From: a virus
DNA length: 17,536 bases
Strand: one strand, 5' to 3'
Virus genome (UHGV): UHGV-1676750
Position 1 is the stretch's first letter; each line of letters begins with the position of its first letter. The notes under the pieces are model-generated. The model was not told the DNA's origin, did not search any database, and worked only from the letters and a program-made list of their open reading frames with translations. Of this stretch, positions 1,894 to 15,557 are shown piece by piece. Made by a program: the position numbers and the translations under genes.

Positions 1894-2271
1894 ATGGCGA
1901 CAAATAACAAAACTTGTCTTTGCTGTAGTACACGTTATAGTTATTGCCCCTCATGTTCGAACGCAGATCGTCTTGCTCCTTCATGGAAGGCTGAATTTTG
2001 TTCCGAAACCTGCAAAGACCTATGGCTCACATGTACTCGCTATAATATGGGCAGACACACCAAGCAAGAAGCACAAGATATTATTAAATCTCTCCCACTC
2101 AAACCTGCTGTCGAATACGTAGCATGCGTACAAAGGGACCTGGGGGTTATCCTAAAAGAAGATCCCAAACCAAAGCGCAATAAGCGCAAACCCATCGACG
2201 ATTTTGCGGACATTACCCCCGCTCTCGTCAATGAGCCAACGAGTGAAGTAGTTTTACAAGAAAATGAGTAA
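1894..2271 (+). CDS. Hypothetical Cys-rich (putative zinc-binding) small protein with a basic KPKRNKRKP patch
   Basis: ATG at 1894 preceded by AAGGAGG (1879-1885); the ORF-track start at 1885 is a GTG inside the RBS. Eight Cys in the first 47 residues (CLCC…CPSC…C…C…C). Confidence 0.7.
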   Translation: MATNNKTCLCCSTRYSYCPSCSNADRLAPSWKAEFCSETCKDLWLTCTRYNMGRHTKQEAQDIIKSLPLKPAVEYVACVQRDLGVILKEDPKPKRNKRKPIDDFADITPALVNEPTSEVVLQENE

Positions 2272-2320
2272 ATAGGGAACTGAACTTCACACGAAACGAA
2301 GATTGGTTCCCTATTTTTTT
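2271..2320 (+). terminator. Candidate intrinsic terminator
   Basis: AATAGGGAAC (2271-2280) pairs with GTTCCCTATT (2306-2315) and is followed by T7 (2314-2320). The loop is long (25 nt) with partial internal pairing. Confidence 0.5.
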
Positions 2321-2343
2321 ACGGACAAAAAGGAGAAAATAAT

Positions 2344-2568
2344 ATGATTAAATCACTGATCACGGGCCGAGAATACGAAGAAAATAACTGCATTTATATC
2401 ACAAACATGTTGCAAGCGCAGCGCTATCTCTCCTATCTCGGCCCCGAGTACCTTTTAGATATTCTCTACACAGGTACATACAGAAAGGATTCCTTAGTTT
2501 TTGTTTTTCAGCGTTGCCCAGAGACACGCAAAGCAAAGGAACTATGGGATAAGCACGAACTAAACTAA
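2344..2568 (+). CDS. Hypothetical small protein (74 aa)
   Basis: ATG at 2344 with AGGAG at 2331-2335. No recognisable motif. Confidence 0.6.
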   Translation: MIKSLITGREYEENNCIYITNMLQAQRYLSYLGPEYLLDILYTGTYRKDSLVFVFQRCPETRKAKELWDKHELN

Positions 2569-2586
2569 AAAAGCGAGGTGTACTAC

Positions 2587-2808
2587 ATGGACGCATCCAT
2601 ACTAGAAACACTTGCTCCAATCATCGGTGATACGCCCGTATCTGTGCAAATTAGCGCAGCACTTGAGCCAATGGCCTCAAAAAACTACGTGCACGATAAC
2701 TACGTCACACTCGATGATTTTGAAGAATTAAAAAGACAATTTGAAGCGCTAGTCGGAGATACGTCTGTTTCTGAACAAATTTCTACGGCGCTTAAAAATA
2801 ATAAATAA
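2587..2808 (+). CDS. Small fibre-motif protein (73 aa) carrying two copies of the VGDT-x-V-x-x-QI module
   Basis: ATG at 2587 with GAGGTG at 2575-2580; the track start at 2578 is a GTG inside the RBS. Contains IGDTPVSVQISAAL and VGDTSVSEQISTAL. Confidence 0.65.
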   Translation: MDASILETLAPIIGDTPVSVQISAALEPMASKNYVHDNYVTLDDFEELKRQFEALVGDTSVSEQISTALKNNK

Positions 2809-2835
2809 AACAATTCGTAAAAGGATGTGATAAAA

Positions 2836-3201
2836 TTGAGCACAAAAAAACTGCAAGTTTTAGATTATAAAATTAAGCAGGCTGAAAACGCTGATACTGT
2901 AGATAATAAGCACGCTTCTGACTTCGCATCCGCTACTGATATGAGCACGGCGCAAAATAATATTAGCGACCTTCAGGCAAAAGTCGGAGATACGCCTGTA
3001 TCTACGCAAATTACAAATGCTATCTCTTCAAACCGTATAGTTTACGTTCAAAACGAAGAGCCAGTTGATGCACCACCTGGATCGCTATGGGTGAATTTAG
3101 AATTGCAAAATACGGATGACTTTGTATCTGTTTATAAAGAAATTTTAATATTTGGAATACAATACGTTGCGCTTGTTGATAGTGATACTTTGATAATATG
3201 A
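2836..3201 (+). CDS. Short tail-fibre-like protein with one VGDT module and an EP…PPGSLW motif
   Basis: Probable TTG start at 2836, 10 nt after AAGGA (2821-2825); the GTG at 2827 is too close to the RBS. Contains KVGDTPVSTQITNAI and EEPVDAPPGSLWVNLE. Confidence 0.6.
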   Translation: MSTKKLQVLDYKIKQAENADTVDNKHASDFASATDMSTAQNNISDLQAKVGDTPVSTQITNAISSNRIVYVQNEEPVDAPPGSLWVNLELQNTDDFVSVYKEILIFGIQYVALVDSDTLII

Positions 3202-3211
3202 GGTGATGATA

Positions 3212-4171
3212 ATGGCAGATATAAGTAAAATTAATATTAAGAATGAACAATATGATATTAAAGATAATATCGCACGAACACATATAGCGAGCACAAGTAA
3301 TCCTCATGGCGTTACAGCTGAACAGGTCGGTGCAAGACCTGATACATGGATGCCTACAGCTGAACAGGTCGGTGCCGTAACGCCTGCGGAACTCAACGCC
3401 GCCATCCGCAAAGCCGCCCCGAGGAATCTGCTGGACAATTCCGATTTCAGGAATCCGGTGAATCAGAGGGGGCAGACGACATACACAAATAACGGTTACA
3501 CGATTGATCGATGGGAGCTATACAGTGGATTGATTGGCGTTTCTTCGGATGGTTATGTATCCACTAATGGACAAATGTATCAGAAAATCGAAATCGCCAC
3601 GGATAAAGTATATACATTTGCGGTCAAAACTGCCGCTGGAATAGCGGCTGTTACGGGAATCCCGGCAAACGGCGCAATCAATCCAGCAACGATTGGCAAC
3701 GCCTTGATTAAACTTGCTACGATTGGAGAGTATGTGGAAGTGGTCATCGAACCGGCTGAAGGATTCGATTTTGCTGGAGCATACTGGGCAGCCCTGTACG
3801 AAGGCTCTTACACTGCGGATACCCTTCCGGAGTACAAGCCGAAGGGGTACGGCGCGGAGCTGGCGGAATGTCAGAGGTATTACCAGCAGTTTTTAAACAA
3901 TGCGTTTTTAGGTTGGGCGACTGTTGATGCAGATGGCATTAACTTTCAGGGAATGATTCCCTGCGGCAGTATGCGGATTAATTCCCCCACGATTCTTGGC
4001 GGAATCTCCGCATGGACAGGCTTGGTTTCAATTGGCGTTTCTTCAGTTACAGTCTTTAATTATCAGGGCAATGGGATGCGGATTAACGGGTGTTTGGCGA
4101 GCAGCACAACGGCTGGCAGTGTCATTGCGATTTATGCTGCGGAAACGGTTGCATTTTCCGCTGACCTGTAA
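3212..4171 (+). CDS. Tail-fibre protein with a GC-rich, probably horizontally exchanged, C-terminal domain
   Basis: ATG at 3212 after GAGGTG. N-terminal SNPHGVTAEQVGA…PTAEQVGA is a duplicated fibre-type motif. G+C rises sharply from about 3340 onward (67% counted for 3361-3420). Confidence 0.7.
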   Translation: MADISKINIKNEQYDIKDNIARTHIASTSNPHGVTAEQVGARPDTWMPTAEQVGAVTPAELNAAIRKAAPRNLLDNSDFRNPVNQRGQTTYTNNGYTIDRWELYSGLIGVSSDGYVSTNGQMYQKIEIATDKVYTFAVKTAAGIAAVTGIPANGAINPATIGNALIKLATIGEYVEVVIEPAEGFDFAGAYWAALYEGSYTADTLPEYKPKGYGAELAECQRYYQQFLNNAFLGWATVDADGINFQGMIPCGSMRINSPTILGGISAWTGLVSIGVSSVTVFNYQGNGMRINGCLASSTTAGSVIAIYAAETVAFSADL

Positions 4172-4185
4172 AGGAGGAATGACAA

Positions 4186-4563
4186 ATGGAATATGAAAAT
4201 CCCTATATCGTGTATGTGAAAACCAATTCCAGCGGCTACATCACCGCCGTCAATTCCTCCGCTTTCCTGACGGACACTACGGACTGGACAGAAATCGACA
4301 GCGGCTATGGCGACAAATACCACCACGCGCAGGGAAACTACTTCCCCCAGCCAATCATCACCGACGGTGGTGCATACCGATATCGTCTGGTGGATGGAAA
4401 GCCTGTGGAATGTACCGCAGAGGAGATTGCGGAGCAGGAGGAGGCAATCAAATCTTCTATTATTACTGTACCAACTGCCGAGGAGCGCATTGCAGAGCTT
4501 GAAGCGCAGAATGAAATGTTACTTCAATGCGTACTCGAAATGAGTGAGACAGTTTATGCGTAA
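4186..4563 (+). CDS. Hypothetical protein directly downstream of the fibre gene; possible fibre-associated or chaperone-like protein (assigned by position only)
   Basis: ATG at 4186 with AGGAGG at 4174-4179. Shares the elevated G+C of the preceding fibre C-terminus. Acidic, helical-looking C-terminus. Confidence 0.55.
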   Translation: MEYENPYIVYVKTNSSGYITAVNSSAFLTDTTDWTEIDSGYGDKYHHAQGNYFPQPIITDGGAYRYRLVDGKPVECTAEEIAEQEEAIKSSIITVPTAEERIAELEAQNEMLLQCVLEMSETVYA

Positions 4564-5261: not shown

Positions 5262-6152
5262 ATGGGAAGTGCTAGTGTATCCGCACCCACAACAGAGGGG
5301 ACTGTATTTGCATCAATAAGCTGGGATACTACTCCAACAGTATCTATAAGTATAACAGGCGGATATGGAATATCATGGAGAATTAGAGGTCGCGGAACAG
5401 ATACATATGTATATTATGGTCCAACAACTTCTTCGTCTGGTACGTTTACGGCAAGTTATGGAACAAGTTATGTACTTCAAGCAGTTAGCGACGGAGGATG
5501 GAATAATACTGGTGATAGTGTATTTACCGTCACGCAAGATGTTCACACTCACTCTTATTCTTTTTATACCACTGTTGACCCAACTTGTACTGAACAAGGT
5601 TATGAGATTTGGCGTTGTAGTGGTTGTGGTGATTTAGATTATAGAAATTATACTAACGCCCTTGGACATAACACTGTCAATACTGTTGTTACCCCGACCT
5701 GTACCGAACAAGGCTATACAACTCACATTTGCTCTCGTTGCGGAGCCACCACAAGCGCTAATGATAATTATACAAGTGCATTGGGCCACAATGATGCTAA
5801 TACTGTTGTTGCTCCAACTTGCACGGAACAAGGCTACACTAAGCATATTTGTTCCCGTTGTGGAATCACTATAAGTGCTAATGATAATTACATAAATGCT
5901 CTTGGACATGCGTGGGACGATGGTGAAATTATACTAGAACCAACTTATACCGAAGATGGAATTATAAAATATTTGTGTACAAGGTGCGGCGAAACTCGTA
6001 CAGAAGCTATAGCTAAAAAAGTTGGTTCGGTGCGTATTTATAACGGTTCAACTTTTGATATTTATAGTATCTATGTACGTGGAAAAGCGCAATCATGGGA
6101 TTTATATGTGCCGTACATATATAATGGATCAAGTTGGGATTTATATAGTTAG
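5262..6152 (+). CDS. Protein with four tandem ~40-aa Cys-rich (zinc-ribbon-like) repeats; putative binding or adhesin-type structural protein
   Basis: Repeats of H-x(9-11)-PTCTEQGY-x(4)-C-[ST]-x-CG-x(10-12)-ALG; the last copy is GHAWDDGEIILEPTYTEDGIIKYLCTRCGETRTEAI. Weak RBS; a 17-codon uORF (5209-5262) overlaps the start. Confidence 0.65.
   Translation: MGSASVSAPTTEGTVFASISWDTTPTVSISITGGYGISWRIRGRGTDTYVYYGPTTSSSGTFTASYGTSYVLQAVSDGGWNNTGDSVFTVTQDVHTHSYSFYTTVDPTCTEQGYEIWRCSGCGDLDYRNYTNALGHNTVNTVVTPTCTEQGYTTHICSRCGATTSANDNYTSALGHNDANTVVAPTCTEQGYTKHICSRCGITISANDNYINALGHAWDDGEIILEPTYTEDGIIKYLCTRCGETRTEAIAKKVGSVRIYNGSTFDIYSIYVRGKAQSWDLYVPYIYNGSSWDLYS
5544..6011 (+). repeat. Four tandem ~120-bp coding repeats (Cys-rich module) inside the 5262-6152 CDS
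   Basis: Units at roughly 5544-5666, 5667-5786, 5787-5906 and 5907-6011. Units 2 and 3 are clearly similar at nucleotide level (shared …CAAGGCTA… and …GCTAATGATAATTA… stretches). Confidence 0.7.
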
Positions 6153-6880: not shown

Positions 6881-6884
6881 GAGA

Positions 6885-7244
6885 ATGGCCGATATAAGAA
6901 AAGTAAAAACTGTATTTCAAATCAGGCGCTCGACGACTGCGGAATGGGAAGCGAATAAAGATGCAATTCCTGATGCCGGAGAGCCCTGTTTTGATTTAGA
7001 CTTTGGTATATTAAAAATTGGTGATGGAAAGACCGCTTATAAAGACCTCAAGATTATTGGTGCTGGCGCTTCAATATCTGACGATGGTCTTTATTTAATT
7101 GTTGATAATTTGCAGAAAGATATCGATGAATTAAAGATCCGCATTGAAAATATTTCTGTTGAAGATCAAATTAATGATGCTATGAGCGATATTGTGGATG
7201 ACTCAGAATTACAGCAAACTCTGGATTCTGTGTTAAATAATTAA
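6885..7244 (+). CDS. Short fibre paralogue: HylP-like N-terminal attachment domain plus a short helical tail (possibly a truncated or minimal fibre)
   Basis: MADIRKVKTVFQIRRSTTAEWEANKDAIPDAGEPCFDLDFGILKIGDGKTAYKDLKIIG matches the conserved N-terminus of Gram-positive phage fibre/hyaluronidase (HylP) proteins: FQ/K-R-R…AEW…GE…D…KIGDG…Y…L. Confidence 0.7.
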   Translation: MADIRKVKTVFQIRRSTTAEWEANKDAIPDAGEPCFDLDFGILKIGDGKTAYKDLKIIGAGASISDDGLYLIVDNLQKDIDELKIRIENISVEDQINDAMSDIVDDSELQQTLDSVLNN

Positions 7245-7263: not shown

Positions 7264-8679
7264 ATGGCAATTAAAAAAATCAAGACATTGTTCCAACTCC
7301 GCAGGGGAACCACTGCCGAATGGGAACTCAATAAATCCGTAGTTCCCGCCGCTGGTGAACCGTGTTTTGATCTAGACCTTGGTACACTCAAAATTGGCGA
7401 CGGCGTTAAAACCTATGAGCAATTAGATGTAATTGGCGGCGGCAATGTAGCGCTTTCTGCCGATGGCAAGTCTATCATTTTGGATGACGGCATTTTTAAG
7501 CTTGCTGGTTTTGCCGATGCTGAAACTGGTGCTCAGCCTCGCAAGAACGCCGACGGCAATATTGAGTGGGTTGTACCTTCTAGCGAAACTCTTGATGGTC
7601 TACAGACAATTGTCGCTGGTTTACAAACTGACGTTACTGGATTGCAAACTAGCGTTGCTAGTATTCAGGAGGTTCTAGCTCCATCCGATGAAGGTGCAAT
7701 GACTCTACTAGAGAGAGTTGCCGCAATTGAGGGTAAGGTTGGCGAAAGCTCTGTTGATGAAAAAATTAACACTGCCTTTGACGACTTTATGGCAAAAGTT
7801 TCTGATGATGGCATCGTCAATACTGTCAAAGAACTAATTGACTATGTAGCAGACCATGCGCCCGAGGCCGCTCAGATGGCCGCTGATATTACTAGTCTGC
7901 AAGAACTTGTTGGTAACACCTCTGTTGATGCCCAAATTCTAGCTGCCATTACTACAAGCGAAGCAAAAACCGCTGCTCTTTACAAGAAAGTAAAATATGA
8001 GATTTCTTCTAAGCCCGCCGAAGCTTTAGTGGACTATAGAGAGAAAGAAATCAGAATTATGTGTCCCGCTGATACTCAATTTGAGCTTCAGAATGTTGGT
8101 CCTACTGGTGATTCTACTAGATACTATATTGGATTTAAGGCATATGCCCCTGATGGCGCTGTAAGCTTTAAGGAAGATACTAAGGCTACCATTGAAGATA
8201 CTACTATGTATTACTTTGAAGGCAATGATTTTGCTGGCACTGATGCTTATGGTCGTAAGTATAGTATTGTATGGCTACCTGTGGCAAAGCATAATGATGA
8301 TGATACTTGGACTTATTATGGTACTAATTCTAGTGCTGCCAAGTATATTGGCTGGTACTACTCTGTCGAGTGGTATGGTGCTAATGGTAAGGTTATTGCG
8401 TCTGATATCATTCGTATTAATCTAAGTAATGAGGCTTGCCATAATGTGGTTGAGCCTTATTTTATGGGCCAAGTTGTTAAGGGAGTTAGCGTTGGTGGAA
8501 CTCTGCTTGATTTGATTGACAATAAGGTTAATATTAATGCCAGTGATATTGTTAAAGGGTCTGATGAAATTGCGGTTGCTGAGGACGGGACTCTAAGCAT
8601 TGGCCAAATTAATGTGTCCAAGCTGGTGCAGGATGAAGGCTCCGAGCTAGTCTTTGATGGCGGCGGGGCTTCTAGATAA
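7264..8679 (+). CDS. Tail-fibre protein with a HylP-like N-terminal domain, GLQTxVx heptad repeats and VGxxSVD-x-x-I modules
   Basis: ATG at 7264, 8 nt after AAAGGAAG. N-terminus TLFQLRRGTTAEWELNKSVVPAAGEPCFDLDLGTLKIGDGVKTYEQL. Three 21-bp tandem heptad repeats at 7597-7659. Contains LVGNTSVDAQILAAI and KVGESSVDEKINTAF. Confidence 0.8.
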   Translation: MAIKKIKTLFQLRRGTTAEWELNKSVVPAAGEPCFDLDLGTLKIGDGVKTYEQLDVIGGGNVALSADGKSIILDDGIFKLAGFADAETGAQPRKNADGNIEWVVPSSETLDGLQTIVAGLQTDVTGLQTSVASIQEVLAPSDEGAMTLLERVAAIEGKVGESSVDEKINTAFDDFMAKVSDDGIVNTVKELIDYVADHAPEAAQMAADITSLQELVGNTSVDAQILAAITTSEAKTAALYKKVKYEISSKPAEALVDYREKEIRIMCPADTQFELQNVGPTGDSTRYYIGFKAYAPDGAVSFKEDTKATIEDTTMYYFEGNDFAGTDAYGRKYSIVWLPVAKHNDDDTWTYYGTNSSAAKYIGWYYSVEWYGANGKVIASDIIRINLSNEACHNVVEPYFMGQVVKGVSVGGTLLDLIDNKVNINASDIVKGSDEIAVAEDGTLSIGQINVSKLVQDEGSELVFDGGGASR

Positions 8680-8726: not shown

Positions 8727-10664
8727 ATGGCTATTGAAAAAACACTTAATACTCGTCTGAAACTTCGTTACGATTCTCATGAGAATTGGCTTGCTAATGA
8801 TCCTACTCTGCTTGCAGGCGAAGTCGCTCTAAGTGCTGTATCTGTTAAGCAGGACGGCGTAGTTAACGAAGTCCCCAGCGTACTAATTAAAGTTGGCGAT
8901 GGCACTCATAAGTATTCCGAACTAGATTATGCTTACGCGAGGGCGGCAGATGTCATCGAGCAGGCTAAGAGTGCAGAAAAGCTAACCGATTTCATCAACA
9001 ATGTAATTGCTAGTGCTGGTATTGCCACTGACGAGGCTCTAACTACTCTAGCTGGTAAGGTTACTACTGCCGAAGGCAAGATCACTGCTCTAGAAGGTCT
9101 AGTTGGCGATACTGCCGTAGCCACTCAGATTCAGAATAAGATTGATGCTCTGAAACTATCCGATACCTATGCCGCAAAGTCTCACACTCATACTAAGTCT
9201 GAGATTACTGATTTTGCGCATACTCATGTTATTGGTGATGTAACTGGTTTAAGCGATTCTATTGCTGAAGCTAAGCAGACTGGCCTTGACGCAACTTCTG
9301 CTCTTAATACTTATAAGAATACTAATGATGCTGCTGTAAAGGCCAATACTGATGCAATTGCTGCTATTAACAACGCTGACACTGGTATTCTTGCTCAGGC
9401 TAAGACTTATGCTGACGGAAAGGATGCCGCTATTACCGCTGCTAAGAATGCTGCTGATGCTGCTCAGGCTGACGTTGACGCCCTAGAAGCTAAGGTCGGC
9501 ACTGTCCCTGCAGATACCACTGTTGTCCAGATGATTGCTGACGCCCAGGATGCTGCTACTTATGATGACACTGCTCTAAAGGGTCGTGTAAGCGCAAACG
9601 AGACTGCTATTAGCAAGCTAAATGGGCTTGTCGGTGACACCGCTGTCGCCACTCAGATTAGCACTGCTGTTTCCGATGCTAAGACTGAGCTAAAGGGTAG
9701 CGCTTCCGATACCGATGCTTCTGCTACTATTGCTGGCGCTAAGAAGTATGCTGACAAGCTAGATGCTGCTATGGATGCTCGTGTTGATGCTCTAGAGGCT
9801 GCTGTTGGCGAAGATGGTTCTGTTGCAGAGAAGATCACTGCCGCAGTTGAAGCTCTTGACGCTACCGTTGAGACCGCTGCAATCCCAGAAGGTCAGGACG
9901 GTATTTATGTAAAGGTTACCGAGGTTGATGGTAAGCTAACTGCTGTTGAGGCTACTATCGAAGTATCTAATGAGATTAATGCTGCTAAGTCCGAGCTTGA
10001 GGACAAGATTGGTACTGTTGCCGAGGGTAAGACTCTTGCTGGTCTAATCGCTGACAATGCTGCCGCTATTGAGGCTCATAAGACTGCGGTCGATGCTAAG
10101 GTAACCACTCTAATTGGTGCTGATACCGACAAATCCGTGCGTACTATTGCTAATGAGGAACTGGCTGCTCAGCTGATTCCTGAGAACGCTAAGGAATCTC
10201 TAAATACCCTACAGGAGATCGCTGCTTGGATTCAGGCTCACCCCGATGATGCCGCTACAATGAATACGGCCATTGCAAACCTAAAGGCGCTAGTTGGTGA
10301 CGAAAGTGTTAACGCTCAGATTAATACTGCCGTTGACAACCTAAAGAATAACGAGATTAAGAACGCAACTGATCGCATTGCAGATCTAGAGGCTGATACT
10401 CACACTCATGCCAACAAGGCCCTGCTCGATTCTTACACTCAGACCGAAGCTGACCTGGCTGACGCCGTTGCTAAGAAGCACGAGCACGCTAATGCTACCG
10501 AACTGGCCAAGTTCGTTGAGGGTGATAAGGATAAGCTAGATGCCGCCGTTCAGACTGTTACCGCTGGCACTGGCCTCACCGCAACTAAGACTGGTACTGA
10601 TGTAGCTATTGGATTTGACGATACTGTCACTTTCGTGTTTGACTGCGGCGATAGCTCCATCTAA
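8727..10664 (+). CDS. Long tail-fibre protein: HylP-like N-terminus (variant), Ala-rich helical shaft, three VGD-x-x-V-x-x-QI modules and HTH/HxH motifs
   Basis: ATG at 8727 with AAGGAG at 8711-8716. Contains LVGDTAVATQIQNKI, LVGDTAVATQISTAV, LVGDESVNAQINTAV, SHTHTKSEITDFAHTHV and DTHTHANKALLDSY. G+C is visibly higher than in flanking AT-rich genes. Confidence 0.8.
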   Translation: MAIEKTLNTRLKLRYDSHENWLANDPTLLAGEVALSAVSVKQDGVVNEVPSVLIKVGDGTHKYSELDYAYARAADVIEQAKSAEKLTDFINNVIASAGIATDEALTTLAGKVTTAEGKITALEGLVGDTAVATQIQNKIDALKLSDTYAAKSHTHTKSEITDFAHTHVIGDVTGLSDSIAEAKQTGLDATSALNTYKNTNDAAVKANTDAIAAINNADTGILAQAKTYADGKDAAITAAKNAADAAQADVDALEAKVGTVPADTTVVQMIADAQDAATYDDTALKGRVSANETAISKLNGLVGDTAVATQISTAVSDAKTELKGSASDTDASATIAGAKKYADKLDAAMDARVDALEAAVGEDGSVAEKITAAVEALDATVETAAIPEGQDGIYVKVTEVDGKLTAVEATIEVSNEINAAKSELEDKIGTVAEGKTLAGLIADNAAAIEAHKTAVDAKVTTLIGADTDKSVRTIANEELAAQLIPENAKESLNTLQEIAAWIQAHPDDAATMNTAIANLKALVGDESVNAQINTAVDNLKNNEIKNATDRIADLEADTHTHANKALLDSYTQTEADLADAVAKKHEHANATELAKFVEGDKDKLDAAVQTVTAGTGLTATKTGTDVAIGFDDTVTFVFDCGDSSI

Positions 10665-10743: not shown

Positions 10744-11589
10744 ATGCCAAATAAAGAAATATTGGCCCGTGTCAAGCAAAAAAGAGATACGAGCGCTAAC
10801 TGGGAAGCACGAAATCCAGTTATTTTAAATGGCGAGATTATTCTCGTAGATACCAACGCAGGCGAGCTTAGAGCTAAAATTGGCGATGGTACAAAAACGT
10901 ATACTCAGCTACCTTTTTCAGATGAAGCTTTAAGAAGCCTCATCAATGCAAATAAGGTTACGGTAGATAGTGCGCTGTCTTCTACTAGTACCAATCCTGT
11001 ACAGAATAAAATTGTAAACGCCGCCATTAGCAACTTGAATACTTTGGTTGGTGATACCTCTATATCTTCTCAAATCGAAACTGCTGTTGCTTCAAAGCTC
11101 GACGCCGCAGATGCGACTTGGGCTCAGATTTATGATTCTGGCGCAATTACATCAGAAGTAAACTCTATTGCGGGCATTGATATCACAGGTTATAAGAGTC
11201 TAATGGTTGCTGTTAAGTGTGTAAACACTACGAATACCGCCAGTACAAGAGCTGGTGCGGTAATTTTTACTGGCAATAATCAAGACTATGCGTTTAATAA
11301 TCTTTTTAGCAACCTGATTAAAAATGGTACAACAACTTCCGGTGCTATGGCTAAATTTAAGATCGTGGACGGTTTTATTATTTGTGAGACTGCTATGAGA
11401 GCAATTACTGCGGATGGCATTTTATCTGATGCCGAAGGGGTAGGAATTGATACATTAGCCCCAGTAAGTAGTGGTCTTATTAAGTGTACAAACGCAGTCA
11501 CTACAATGGCCGTTTCTAGTGCGGCTCAGTCTGCAGACCATTACTACGGTGTTGGTAGTAGAGTTATTGTTTGGGGGTGTAAGGTATAA
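10744..11589 (+). CDS. Tail-fibre protein with a HylP-like N-terminal domain and one VGDT module
   Basis: N-terminus ILARVKQKRDTSANWEARNPVILNGEIILVDTNAGELRAKIGDGTKTYTQLPF. Contains LVGDTSISSQIETAVASKL. Confidence 0.8.
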   Translation: MPNKEILARVKQKRDTSANWEARNPVILNGEIILVDTNAGELRAKIGDGTKTYTQLPFSDEALRSLINANKVTVDSALSSTSTNPVQNKIVNAAISNLNTLVGDTSISSQIETAVASKLDAADATWAQIYDSGAITSEVNSIAGIDITGYKSLMVAVKCVNTTNTASTRAGAVIFTGNNQDYAFNNLFSNLIKNGTTTSGAMAKFKIVDGFIICETAMRAITADGILSDAEGVGIDTLAPVSSGLIKCTNAVTTMAVSSAAQSADHYYGVGSRVIVWGCKV

Positions 11590-12712: not shown

Positions 12713-12883
12713 ATGAATAAATATTTCTATTGTTATAGCTATCCATTAAAAGAATTTTTCAAAAAAAACGGCTTAAGTTACATTACCGCCGCTACGAATC
12801 ATTCAACAAATAAAACGTATTGGTTGTTTGAAGGATCTGAAAAATTAAATATGTTATTACAAAAATGGCGTTTAAATAAATAA
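12713..12883 (+). CDS. Unannotated small ORF (56 aa), hypothetical; absent from the ORF track because it is under 60 aa
   Basis: ATG at 12713 preceded by AAAGGGG. Translates to MNKYFYCYSYPLKEFFKKNGLSYITAATNHSTNKTYWLFEGSEKLNMLLQKWRLNK. Contains an A8 run at 12761-12768. The stop codon is embedded in the hairpin at 12862-12893. Confidence 0.4.
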   Translation: MNKYFYCYSYPLKEFFKKNGLSYITAATNHSTNKTYWLFEGSEKLNMLLQKWRLNK

Positions 12884-12900
12884 ACGTCATTTTCTATTTT
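12862..12900 (+). terminator. Candidate AT-rich intrinsic terminator
   Basis: AAAATGGCGTTT (12862-12873) pairs with AAACGTCATTTT (12882-12893): 12-bp stem with one G-U wobble and an 8-nt loop, followed by CTATTTT. The stem is AT-rich, hence modest stability. Confidence 0.4.
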
Positions 12901-12928
12901 ACAAATGATGTTTTGGAGGTAACTAAAG

Positions 12929-14266
12929 ATGAAGAAGTTGACGCATGAAGAATTTATTGAGAAAGTAACGAAACTCAACGAACATGTTGCAAATGGTGAG
13001 ATAGAAATATTAAGTCAGTATATAAACCAAAGAACTAAAATTAAATGTAAATGTGCCATACATAATACTATATGGGAGAGATCGGTACAAAGCCTTTACG
13101 AAAATAGTGGTTGTGAAGATTGTAAATATGAATTAAGTGGAAGAAAAAGACGGTTTTCACATGAAGAATTTGTTGAAAAGATAAAGGTTTTAAATGATGA
13201 AATTATAGTTTTGGGACATTATACAACGATGAATAAATCAATTGAATTTCAATGTAAATTTGGTCATATATGGACAGCCAAGCCTTATAGCATTATCAAT
13301 GGGCATCAATGTCCATATTGTGCTGGGCAAAAACCTATAATTGGGAATAATGACTTATGGACAACAAGACCAGACGTTGCAAGTTTATTAAAAAATCGTG
13401 ATGACGGATATGGTTTGATGGAATTTAGTCAGCGTAAAGTAATATTTATTTGTCCAACATGCGGTAACGAAATCATAAAATCAGTTCAACGTGTATCAAT
13501 AGATGGGCTTGTTTGCCAAAGATGTTCTGATGGTGTATCATATCCGAATAAATTTGCAAGAGCATTTTTAAATCAACTACTTGGTAATAATTTTAAATGT
13601 GAGTATCAACCTGATTGGGCCAAACCATATTATTATGATAATTATTTTGAATATGGTAATAAGAAATATATTTTGGAGATGGATGGCAGTTTTCATTATA
13701 TTTCAAGACAGTTGACCAAACAGTCTCTTGATGAACGAAAAAGGATTGATGCATTAAAAGATAAACTTGCTGAGCAACATAATATTCGTGTTATTCGTAT
13801 AGAGTGTATAAAATCTAATTGTAATTACATAAAGAATAACATTTTACAATCCGAGTTGAGTTTAGTTTTTAATTTATCTAAGATTAATTGGGATTTATGC
13901 GACCAAATGGCGCAAAGAAGTTTGGTTAAAGATGTTTGTAATTTATATATGAACGGAATAAAAGATTTGCATAAAATAGCAGAAATATTGCATATTAGCA
14001 AAAGTACGGTATATGTATATTTGGTTAGAGGTTCTAAGTTTGGATGGTGTGATTACGATGGGAAGAATGCTCATTACTTGAAAATTTCTATTCCAATAAT
14101 TGTACTTGATGAAAATAACAATGCTATACATAAGTTTGATAGTATTAGTGCGTGCAAAGAAGAGATGAAAAAAATGTACGGATATTCATTTGATAGAAAT
14201 ACTTTGAAAAAAGCTTGTGAGTATTCTATTTCATATCATGGATTTAACTTTAAATATGCGTATTAA
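12929..14266 (+). CDS. Multi-domain homing-endonuclease-like protein: tandem zinc-ribbon modules, a Vsr/DUF559-like PD-(D/E)xK nuclease core, a helix-turn-helix and a NUMOD1-like C-terminal DNA-binding domain
   Basis: Two ~60-aa repeats ([TS]HEEF[IV]EK…LN…C-x-x-H…W…G-x-x-C-x-x-C) and a third CPTCG…CQRCS module. KKYILEMDGSFHYI…DERKRIDALKDKLAEQHNIRVIRIE resembles the DUF559/Vsr-like endonuclease motif. KIAEILHISKSTVYVYL is HTH-like. The C-terminus IPIIVLDENNNAIHKFDSISACKEEM…YHGFNFKY parallels the C-terminus of the GIY-YIG protein. Very AT-rich. RBS GGAGGT at 12915-12920. Confidence 0.65.
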   Translation: MKKLTHEEFIEKVTKLNEHVANGEIEILSQYINQRTKIKCKCAIHNTIWERSVQSLYENSGCEDCKYELSGRKRRFSHEEFVEKIKVLNDEIIVLGHYTTMNKSIEFQCKFGHIWTAKPYSIINGHQCPYCAGQKPIIGNNDLWTTRPDVASLLKNRDDGYGLMEFSQRKVIFICPTCGNEIIKSVQRVSIDGLVCQRCSDGVSYPNKFARAFLNQLLGNNFKCEYQPDWAKPYYYDNYFEYGNKKYILEMDGSFHYISRQLTKQSLDERKRIDALKDKLAEQHNIRVIRIECIKSNCNYIKNNILQSELSLVFNLSKINWDLCDQMAQRSLVKDVCNLYMNGIKDLHKIAEILHISKSTVYVYLVRGSKFGWCDYDGKNAHYLKISIPIIVLDENNNAIHKFDSISACKEEMKKMYGYSFDRNTLKKACEYSISYHGFNFKYAY

Positions 14267-14336
14267 CAATACAAAATTAATGTTTAAAGTAATTAGTGAA
14301 ATAATAAAGTCTAAAATACTAAGGAGGAGTTTATAT

Positions 14337-15557
14337 ATGTCTAACCCCAATTTCAATCCTACGTATAGCTCGAACTTAATTTGGAGAGATGAAGACGACA
14401 CTCGTTGTATTACTGATGACCTAGATAATATCGAATCCGACATCACTGCACTCGAAACAGGCAAGGCCGACACTAACCATACACATACCGGATATGCTAC
14501 TACAGATCACACTCATACAGGCTACGCCGCAGCAGATCATACCCACACTGGCTATGCGGCGGCTGCAGACGTAACTACACTACAAAATTTGGTTGGAGAC
14601 ACTAGTGTATCTTCTCAGATCAGTACGGCTATTGCGGGCAAGGTTGATGCTGTGGAAGGTAAAGGCTTGTCTACCAATGACTATACGACAGCCGAGAAGA
14701 ATAAGCTTACTGGAATTGATACAGGAGCTAACAATTATGTGCTTCCAACTGCAAGCAGCACTACTCTTGGCGGTATTAAAACTGGGGATAACATTACTAA
14801 TTCGTCTGGTACGATTAGTCTAACAAAAAGCAATGTCACGTCAGCTTTAGGATATACTCCATTTGGCAGTAGTACGTTGTCAATGGCCAATGGTGGTACT
14901 GGCAGCGCTCAGGTTGTTAATGCTCCAAAGAATGCCATATTGAAGAAGGCAAACGATGGGAACTATGTGTGGTATACTCAGACAAAAAGTGGGGCTTTCT
15001 ACGCTACTGCAACAGATGGAGTTCCGAAATTCGGTGTACTGCCCAAGGCATTAGGTGGCACAGGTGCGGATTTCAGTAATATTCCAGCTAATGCTATTAT
15101 TCGTAATTCTGGTTCTGGCGGTAGTGACTTGTACTATTTTGCAACTGGCAATGGGGCATGCTATGCCACATCAGCTAATGGGTATCCGACTTTTGGTACA
15201 TTGCCCGTAGCGCAAGGTGGCACTGGCGAAACTACTGCTTGGACAAATGGTACAGTTACGAGTTTGAATAGTACTACTATTACATCATACCAATTTGCTG
15301 TTTTCCCCTATTTAAATAAGGCATTTATTAGGCTTAATGTGCTATTAGGTAGTGCTTTAGATGCTGACGAAGCTAGATATATAGTAATGCCGTCAACTGT
15401 TGCAACTGCACATACTGCTTTGTCTTGCTTTAATATTGCTGGATATGATATTCATTGTGGTATGGCTAGCGATAGTGGCATTTATGTAATTAATTGTGGT
15501 ACTGCTTCAATGCCCAATACTGTACGTCTTTATATTGCGGGATGGTATTCAATCTAA
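14337..15557 (+). CDS. Tail-fibre protein with an HTHTGYA triple repeat, one VGDT module and repeated GGTG motifs
   Basis: ATG at 14337 with AAGGAGG at 14321-14327; the track ORF from 14217 overlaps the upstream gene and lacks an RBS. Contains NHTHTGYATTDHTHTGYAAADHTHTGYAAA, LVGDTSVSSQISTAIAGKV, and three L-x-x-x-GGTG motifs (MANGGTGSA, PKALGGTGAD, PVAQGGTGET). Confidence 0.8.
   Translation: MSNPNFNPTYSSNLIWRDEDDTRCITDDLDNIESDITALETGKADTNHTHTGYATTDHTHTGYAAADHTHTGYAAAADVTTLQNLVGDTSVSSQISTAIAGKVDAVEGKGLSTNDYTTAEKNKLTGIDTGANNYVLPTASSTTLGGIKTGDNITNSSGTISLTKSNVTSALGYTPFGSSTLSMANGGTGSAQVVNAPKNAILKKANDGNYVWYTQTKSGAFYATATDGVPKFGVLPKALGGTGADFSNIPANAIIRNSGSGGSDLYYFATGNGACYATSANGYPTFGTLPVAQGGTGETTAWTNGTVTSLNSTTITSYQFAVFPYLNKAFIRLNVLLGSALDADEARYIVMPSTVATAHTALSCFNIAGYDIHCGMASDSGIYVINCGTASMPNTVRLYIAGWYSI
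14475..14564 (+). repeat. Three tandem 30-bp coding repeats, each encoding [ND]HTHTGYA-x-x
   Basis: aaccatacacataccggatatgctactaca / gatcacactcatacaggctacgccgcagca / gatcatacccacactggctatgcggcggct. Confidence 0.75.

Follow-up and report, generated by a model that had tools for sequence, protein, structure and literature searches.

The window analysed here is a stretch of 17,536 nt from a virus (UHGV virus genome UHGV-1676750), given as one strand, 5' to 3'. Four consecutive genes on its + strand encode proteins with an Mtd_N/HylP-like N-terminus, and the second of them, the 471-aa fibre gene, contains three head-to-tail units of 21 nt, each encoding a heptad of the form GLQTxVx (positions are collected in Table 1). 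It is quite probable that these units make up the heptad core of an amphipathic helix of 29 residues, with which a coiled-coil stalk, probably trimeric, begins; by this stalk a beta-sandwich would be spaced from the tail.

ATG 7264 was taken as the likely start of the fibre gene, because the ribosome-binding site (RBS) AAGGAAG ends 9 nt upstream of it and an identical 471-aa product (P0001, one of 1452 homologues found) is present in public assemblies; GTG 7255 and ATG 7258 are alternative starts. The N-terminus of the protein was assigned to Pfam family PF18454 (Mtd_N) with 49.6 bits (cut-off 26.3; aa 11–48), its PHROG matches are the 'minor tail protein' and 'tail protein' families, and its BFVD fold matches are Mtd_N-containing tail proteins; a search of NCBIfam gave nothing meaningful. 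Together with the tail module in which the gene lies, these matches bear out the initial annotation, in which the repeats had been placed in a fibre, and the gene is identified as that of a tail fibre of modular build, in which an anchor domain is followed by a coiled-coil stalk in segments and by a beta-sandwich as its tip. A small beta region lies between the Mtd_N/HylP-like domain and the first helix, and both form the N-terminal anchoring part. In the AlphaFold2 (AF2) model (single chain, 97-sequence alignment) residues 139–147 are coil, P140 and S141 being conserved; two junctions of the form V-G-x-x-S-V-x-x-(Q/K)-I connect the stalk helices, and the C-terminal tail (aa 400–471) was modelled with low confidence. 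An open reading frame (ORF) in an alternative frame (7463–7678, 71 aa) overlaps the fibre gene; the fibre frame is conserved in more than 1,000 homologues.

The three units, ggtctacagacaattgtcgct, ggtttacaaactgacgttact and ggattgcaaactagcgttgct (+ strand), are in frame over all 63 bases with the fibre ORF (7255/7264–8679, +) and encode GLQTIVA, GLQTDVT and GLQTSVA, i.e., aa 112–132 numbered from ATG 7264. The periodic segment exceeds them on both sides: the coiled-coil register begins at L110 (7591), and a fourth heptad runs to 7680. Position a of the register is taken by L110, V117, V124, V131 and L138, and position d by L113, L120, L127 and I134. Conservation per position was determined in the 64 homologues that share the length class of the window protein; the a/d positions (110, 113, 117, 120, 124, 127, 131, 134 and 138) are L, I, V, M or F in 100% of them, positions b, c, e and f are hydrophobic in 0–5%, and every heptad has Q or K at e. 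The a/d pattern being kept in all 64, the periodicity is not due to chance. A 28-aa window with eight hydrophobic a/d positions out of eight occurs in the protein only within residues 107–140, and the pattern is that of a canonical heptad repeat, hydrophobic at a/d and polar elsewhere. AF2 returned a single continuous helix at 110–138 (pLDDT, the predicted local distance difference test, 82, 91 and 87 for the blocks over 111–140); there is no Pro at 106–139, so that the helix runs proline-free in the model over at least 3–4 heptads, with Gly at position c in three of them. The predicted template modelling score (pTM) of 0.42 means that the relative placement of the helices is not fixed by the model. 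The heptad periodicity had been read initially as that of a short coiled coil or of a beta-helical linker; the former agrees with the predicted helix and with the uniformly hydrophobic a/d positions, and the latter was dropped, as no strand was predicted and the a/d pattern is canonical.

Table 1: Positions in the window of the fibre gene, its segments and its neighbouring paralogues.
Feature	Position	Strand	Remarks
Tail-fibre-type gene, 471 aa	7264..8679	+	ORF list, translation, RBS, homologues, tail PHROGs
Mtd_N / HylP-N-like N-terminal domain, aa 11–48	7294..7407	+	Presumed attachment and trimer-capping domain
Predicted continuous alpha-helix, aa 110–138, 29 residues, whole heptad segment	7591..7677	+	AF2, conservation
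Three 21-nt units	7597..7659	+	Coiled-coil register per unit: c-d-e-f-g-a-b
Fourth heptad, degenerate, SIQEVLA, aa 133–139	7660..7680	+	Closes the helix
Loop PSDEGAMT, aa 140–147, consensus P-S-x-E-G	7681..7704	+	Parts helix 1 from helix 2
Rest of segmented helical stalk, helices aa 148–159, 164–177, 188–216 and 221–240	7705..7983	+	AF2
C-terminal beta-sandwich, aa 245–390	7996..8433	+	Confidently modelled; putative receptor-binding or distal domain
Short paralogue, 120 aa, same N-terminal domain followed by a short heptad-like stretch, DNLQKDIDELKIRIENI	6882..7244	+	
Helical fibre paralogue, 645 aa, diverged Mtd_N-like N-terminus, three VGDxxVxxQI junctions	8727..10664	+	
Fourth fibre paralogue, 281 aa, Mtd_N-like N-terminus	10744..11589	+	Pfam 25.5 bits, just below the 26.3 cut-off

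The number of heptads was surveyed in the 120 best homologues (56–100% identity) by the spacing from an upstream E-W anchor to a downstream L-L-x-R anchor. The spacing is 39, 46, 53 or 60 residues in 33, 64, 4 and 1 proteins, respectively (102/120); the other 18 are off by 1–2 residues, which on visual inspection belong to the loops on either side of the helix. Three heptads were counted in 39 of the 120 homologues, four in 76, five in 4 and six in 1. The length steps are multiples of 7 and preserve the register; the variable element is the middle x-L-Q-T-N-V-x unit, and the first two GLQ units and the last unit, x-I-Q-E-I-x-x, are constant. On a neighbour-joining tree built from the alignment minus the heptad region, at least 19 independent changes of heptad class were required. 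For the homologue with six heptads (P0100) AF2 gave a continuous helix at 111–153, 43 residues long and so precisely the 14 residues longer than in the window protein (29) that had been predicted; in a distant homologue (L010, 49% identity) the E-W strand leads straight to the second helix, without the heptad segment. Variation in copy number, expected from the initial annotation, is thus present in 7-residue steps (3–6 heptads in the 120 homologues), and the repeat instability at the DNA level that had been implied with it did not hold, as detailed below; with a periodic structure predicted and a copy number that is not invariant, neither of the outcomes that had been named as speaking against the annotation was found.

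In the assembled fibre, a parallel homotrimeric coiled-coil stalk would most likely begin with helix L110–L138, which would follow directly after the N-terminal anchoring part and be continued by four further helical segments and then by the C-terminal beta-sandwich. This helix would most likely fix the register of the three chains behind the N-terminal cap by zipping them together, and serve as a rigid spacer holding the distal domain off the tail; the standard rise of an alpha-helix being ~1.5 Å per residue, the spacer would measure ~4 nm, or ~1 nm per heptad. The length of the helix evolves by whole heptads only, because other indels would put a and d out of register. Most phage fibres are trimers, and from this together with the HylP-type relatives of the N-terminal domain we infer the homotrimeric state, by analogy. 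The family profile, compared with solved trimeric coiled coils, gave weak matches over residues ~105–165 (E 0.008–0.2) to Lpp, reovirus sigma-1, the P22 needle gp26 and GCN4 adaptor fusions, which are suggestive only.

Several points weigh against this reading. Three successive heptads have Gly at position c, and of these glycines the first two are conserved in ~92–94% of the homologues; Gly at this position is atypical for a stable helix and may indicate marginal stability, flexibility or another local conformation in the fibre. Every coiled-coil match in the PDB has E > 0.001, and a core with Val at a and Leu at d does not by itself specify a trimer, as is known from GCN4 core variants. The role of the helix as spacer and register-setter we infer from the architecture of the protein, and it is on the same grounds that the C-terminal domain possibly binds the receptor, its fold matches being generic.

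At the DNA level the units are imperfect repeats (unit-to-unit identity 13/21, 13/21 and 16/21), the reading frame and the GLQT heptads standing as initially reported; Tandem Repeats Finder reported 2.0 copies only, at 7616–7656 (80% matches, score 54). A slippage-prone tandem repeat, i.e., a variable-number tandem repeat (VNTR) or contingency locus whose 21-bp units misalign in replication so that fibre length switches within a population, would be suggested by units that lie head to tail and in frame, by the fact that a change in copy number would keep the reading frame, and by homologues that differ by whole units. For comparison, the three peptides were re-encoded 20,000 times with the codon usage of the long ORFs of the window. 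The simulated identities were 13.2, 14.6 and 13.2 (observed: 13, 13 and 16, of 21), and the summed identity of 42 compares with a simulated mean of ~41 (P = 0.40 for a value at least as high as that observed); the resemblance of units 2 and 3 slightly exceeds the simulated one (16/21 vs 13.2; uncorrected P = 0.048), which would favour slippage. The G-L-Q-T residues are encoded by synonymous codons that differ from unit to unit, the longest exact run in register, at an offset of 21 nt, is 6 nt, and the units of four homologues, which have 3, 4, 5 and 6 heptads, show the same degree of divergence (5–15/21). Neither an inter-unit identity above coding constraint nor long exact repeats, as would mark a VNTR, were thus found. 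Because the units are not more alike in nucleotides than expected from peptides and codon usage, the signal is at the protein level: the nucleotide periodicity is fully explained by selection on the peptide, the 21-bp period being a by-product of the protein heptads, and the units show no sign of recent duplication and offer no substrate for slippage. Four heptads are also present in the close relatives P0002 (92% aa identity), P0121 and P0122 (same 90% cluster) and L013, an IMG/VR locus with 97% aa and 91.7% nt identity and no gaps relative to the window gene; no difference in copy number was therefore seen among near-identical genomes in this small sample of four relatives. With the identity of the units as the peptides dictate, a longest run of 6 nt and the same count in close relatives, the length variation is a slow evolutionary gain and loss of whole heptads and not repeat slippage; the latter was rejected on the codon-aware simulation and the constant count, and hardly any credence is left to it.

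Two further readings concern the fold and the partners of the segment. A non-canonical element formed in the trimer only, i.e., beta-layers of an alpha/beta coiled coil, a triple beta-helix or a beta-spiral, is brought to mind by the streptococcal phage fibre HylP1, the N-terminal domain of which is homologous to that of the window protein: residues 69–99 of HylP1 form an alpha/beta coiled coil containing beta-layers, and in its sequence IDGLATKVE the LAT is a beta-layer (PMC4786415), to be compared with LDGLQTIVA at the start of the segment in the window protein. The Gly recurs in each GLQT unit, and AF2 run on a monomer can mis-model trimer-only structures as helices. However, the work on HylP1 links beta-layers to a spacing by hexads or nonads (PMC4786415), and here the period is strictly of 7 residues with the hydrophobic residues confined to a/d; a nonad counted from L110 would put G119 in the core and Gln, not a typical small hydrophobic residue, at beta2. 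The helix was moreover modelled with pLDDT 82–91 and without any strand, and it was lengthened by the correct 14 residues in the six-heptad homologue. The beta-layer reading of GLQT, taken from the IDGLAT of HylP1 at the equivalent place, was rejected because of the periodicity, and non-canonical folds as a whole are very improbable. That the amphipathic helix is real and yet not part of a homotrimeric stalk, pairing instead with the 120-aa paralogue or other Mtd_N fibres or folding back on later helices, is somewhat less far-fetched and still quite unlikely. The N-terminal domain is common to the four adjacent genes, the 120-aa paralogue has a short heptad stretch of its own, and the low pTM leaves the arrangement of the helices loose; on the other hand, the syntenic contig L001 has no counterpart of the 120-aa paralogue at that position and keeps the heptad segment, which makes such pairing less likely, and indels of whole heptads occur freely, as a homomeric parallel bundle would allow more readily than a matched hetero- or fold-back interface. 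The solved relatives of the N-terminal domain, HylP1 among them with a coiled-coil region following this domain, are listed as homotrimers (Hartmann et al., PMC4786415), and entry 6x3m contains 9 chains. A bolder extension of the homotrimeric stalk would make the heptad number an actively selected length dial that sets the reach of the beta-sandwich through the envelope, capsule or S-layer of different host Clostridia of the gut, the segment with Gly at c being a marginally stable hinge and not a rod. The resets of heptad class (at least 19 among 120 homologues) and the total loss of the segment in one lineage lie behind this idea, which is unlikely; if it were true, the sequence would give the reach of the fibre and thereby a predictor of host surface architecture in phages of ~160 kb.

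A fibre design with a coiled-coil stalk, as preferred here, is ordinary and well precedented, and no new mechanism is revealed by it; its value lies mainly in the annotation of gene 7264–8679. The family is a clean natural example of length quantisation by whole heptads (3–6 heptads, at least 19 events), which could serve in the engineering of fibre length or in the choice of chimera junctions.

The direct and closest functional precedent, by analogy, is the family of P22-like tail needles, in which homologues have a trimeric coiled-coil shaft of varying length (11–16 heptads), keep the N-terminal domain that binds the virion and swap their C-terminal domains (PMC3741392). Shared with the gp26 family are a virion fibre with a coiled-coil shaft built of heptads and homologues that differ by whole heptads; the profile match of the window family to gp26 is weak (4lin, E = 0.017), with no significant sequence homology. 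The differences are that the N-terminal domain of the window protein is Mtd_N, that its heptad helix is much shorter (3–6 heptads) and the first of five helical segments, and that the protein belongs to the side fibres of a large phage, whose tail tube is SPbeta-like, and is not the plug of a podovirus. The nearest solved proteins by homology are HylP1, HylP2 and HylP (2c3f, 2yvv and 6x3m), through the N-terminal domain only; the match ends at about residue 60, and the window protein has neither the triple-stranded beta-helix nor the lyase domain of these fibres. A hyaluronidase was rejected as candidate, the homology being confined to the first ~60 residues (the profile matches to 6x3m, 2c3f and 2yvv cover residues ~2–62), and no further Pfam or PHROG lyase match, as expected of a triple-stranded beta-helix lyase domain of HylP type, was found. 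With T4 fibritin (wac) the protein shares a segmented trimeric coiled-coil stalk with short conserved loops and a projected C-terminal domain, as far as established knowledge of fibritin goes; no sequence similarity was detected, the window protein has no foldon, and its junctions are VGxxSVxxQI. Fibritin is also mentioned in the work on P22-like needles (PMC3741392). The Mtd protein of Bordetella phage BPP-1 is the namesake of the N-terminal Pfam domain, unlike which system the window has no C-type-lectin variable domain, reverse transcriptase or template/variable pair; a target of a diversity-generating retroelement, an idea taken from the name Mtd_N, was rejected on these grounds, the template/variable pair looked for being a long repeat.

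Fibre modules are shuffled in relatives, with homology boundaries in or beside the helical stalk. In contig L011, from an isolate of Hominicoprocola fusiformis, the Mtd_N domain on the one hand and the beta region with a short helix on the other are found on two adjacent genes (2001–4546), and the two split fibre genes differ in their C-termini; the L010 protein without the heptad helix (2001–3566) carries another C-terminal domain of ~200 aa.

The N-terminus of the 120-aa paralogue is 59% identical over 73 aa to that of the 471-aa fibre, and by its sequence the gene looks like a truncated duplicate. PHROG matches of the 281-aa paralogue are to tail assembly and tail fibre families. The junction motif (L)VG(D/N/E)x(S/A)(V/I)xx(Q/K)I occurs, as a regular expression, 7 times in 4 ORFs (2752, 7738, 7909, 9102, 9630, 10293 and 11047); weaker copies in other ORFs (2971, 7143 and 14580) appear only through the DNA repeat families D1/D2. 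AF2 models the VG..QI motif as a helix-loop-helix junction. The family alignment shows no variation at V216, G217, V221 and I225, and V216 and I225 lie 9 residues apart, which matches the nonads described for the beta-layers of trimeric coiled coils (PMC4786415); the motif may be a conserved coiled-coil junction module, and no Pfam family covering it was found. The alanine-rich 645-aa paralogue contains a 9-nt tandem repeat (GCTGCTCAG, 2.4 copies, 9450–9471) that probably reflects low-complexity coding sequence.

The fibre gene (nucleotide and protein) gave no match in 50,697 deposited phage genomes, and neither did the upstream 274-aa gene (21–842) in a protein search of the same set. A homologue (P0015) on a 159-kb syntenic contig is flanked by genes whose domains are YomU tail-tube, YomW and head-fibre-like; further homologues are found on contigs of up to 172 kb and in gut metagenome-assembled genomes (MAGs) labelled Wujia, Faecalimonas, Acutalibacteraceae and Clostridia. 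The genomes of this phage family, of ~155–172 kb, come from gut metagenomes and Clostridia MAGs, and the uncultured phage group with this tail-fibre module probably infects Clostridia, as judged by MAG binning.

Elsewhere in the window, Rfam and tRNA scans of which were empty, a 296-aa ORF (5262–6152) contains about four tandem modules of ~40 aa (PTCTEQGY-x4-C-x-RCG ... ALGH) with zinc-ribbon-like CxxC pairs; all its zinc-finger matches in Pfam are below threshold, and its DNA contains a 120-nt tandem duplication of 73% identity (repeat 5646–5885). Two free-standing homing-endonuclease genes are present (1006–1833 and 12929–14266), one with GIY-YIG and NUMOD3, the other HNH-like (phrog_559, DUF4379); GC content is 0.37 in the 1-kb block of the first and 0.30–0.31 for the second, against ~0.42 in the surroundings. 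The absence of the second from the syntenic contig L001 indicates its recent insertion between an 80-aa gene and a head-fibre-like gene. The probable start of the latter (14217–15557; weak match to Pfam Phage_head_fibr, tail PHROG) is ATG 14338, preceded by the RBS AAGGAGGAG; GTG 14217, which overlaps the endonuclease gene, is less probable. Upstream of the first of the two endonuclease genes (854–885) lies a 23-nt sequence, CCCTTGACAATACAAAATTAATG, that forms there a perfect TTGACA-N17-TATACT promoter; it occurs again at the 3' ends of both endonuclease genes (1813–1835 and 14260–14282; 91% and 83% identity), and the RBS/start regions of the two genes (980–1008 and 12903–12931) are 86% identical. 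The shared 23-nt sequence and RBS/start region suggest a common cassette boundary or an insertion site located at a promoter. In locus L004 a small DUF5659-like gene adjoins a gene with a faint LAGLIDADG_3 match only, and just upstream of the HNH-like endonuclease gene of the window lies a small unlisted ORF of 56 aa (12714–12884; MNKYFYCYSYPLKEFF...).

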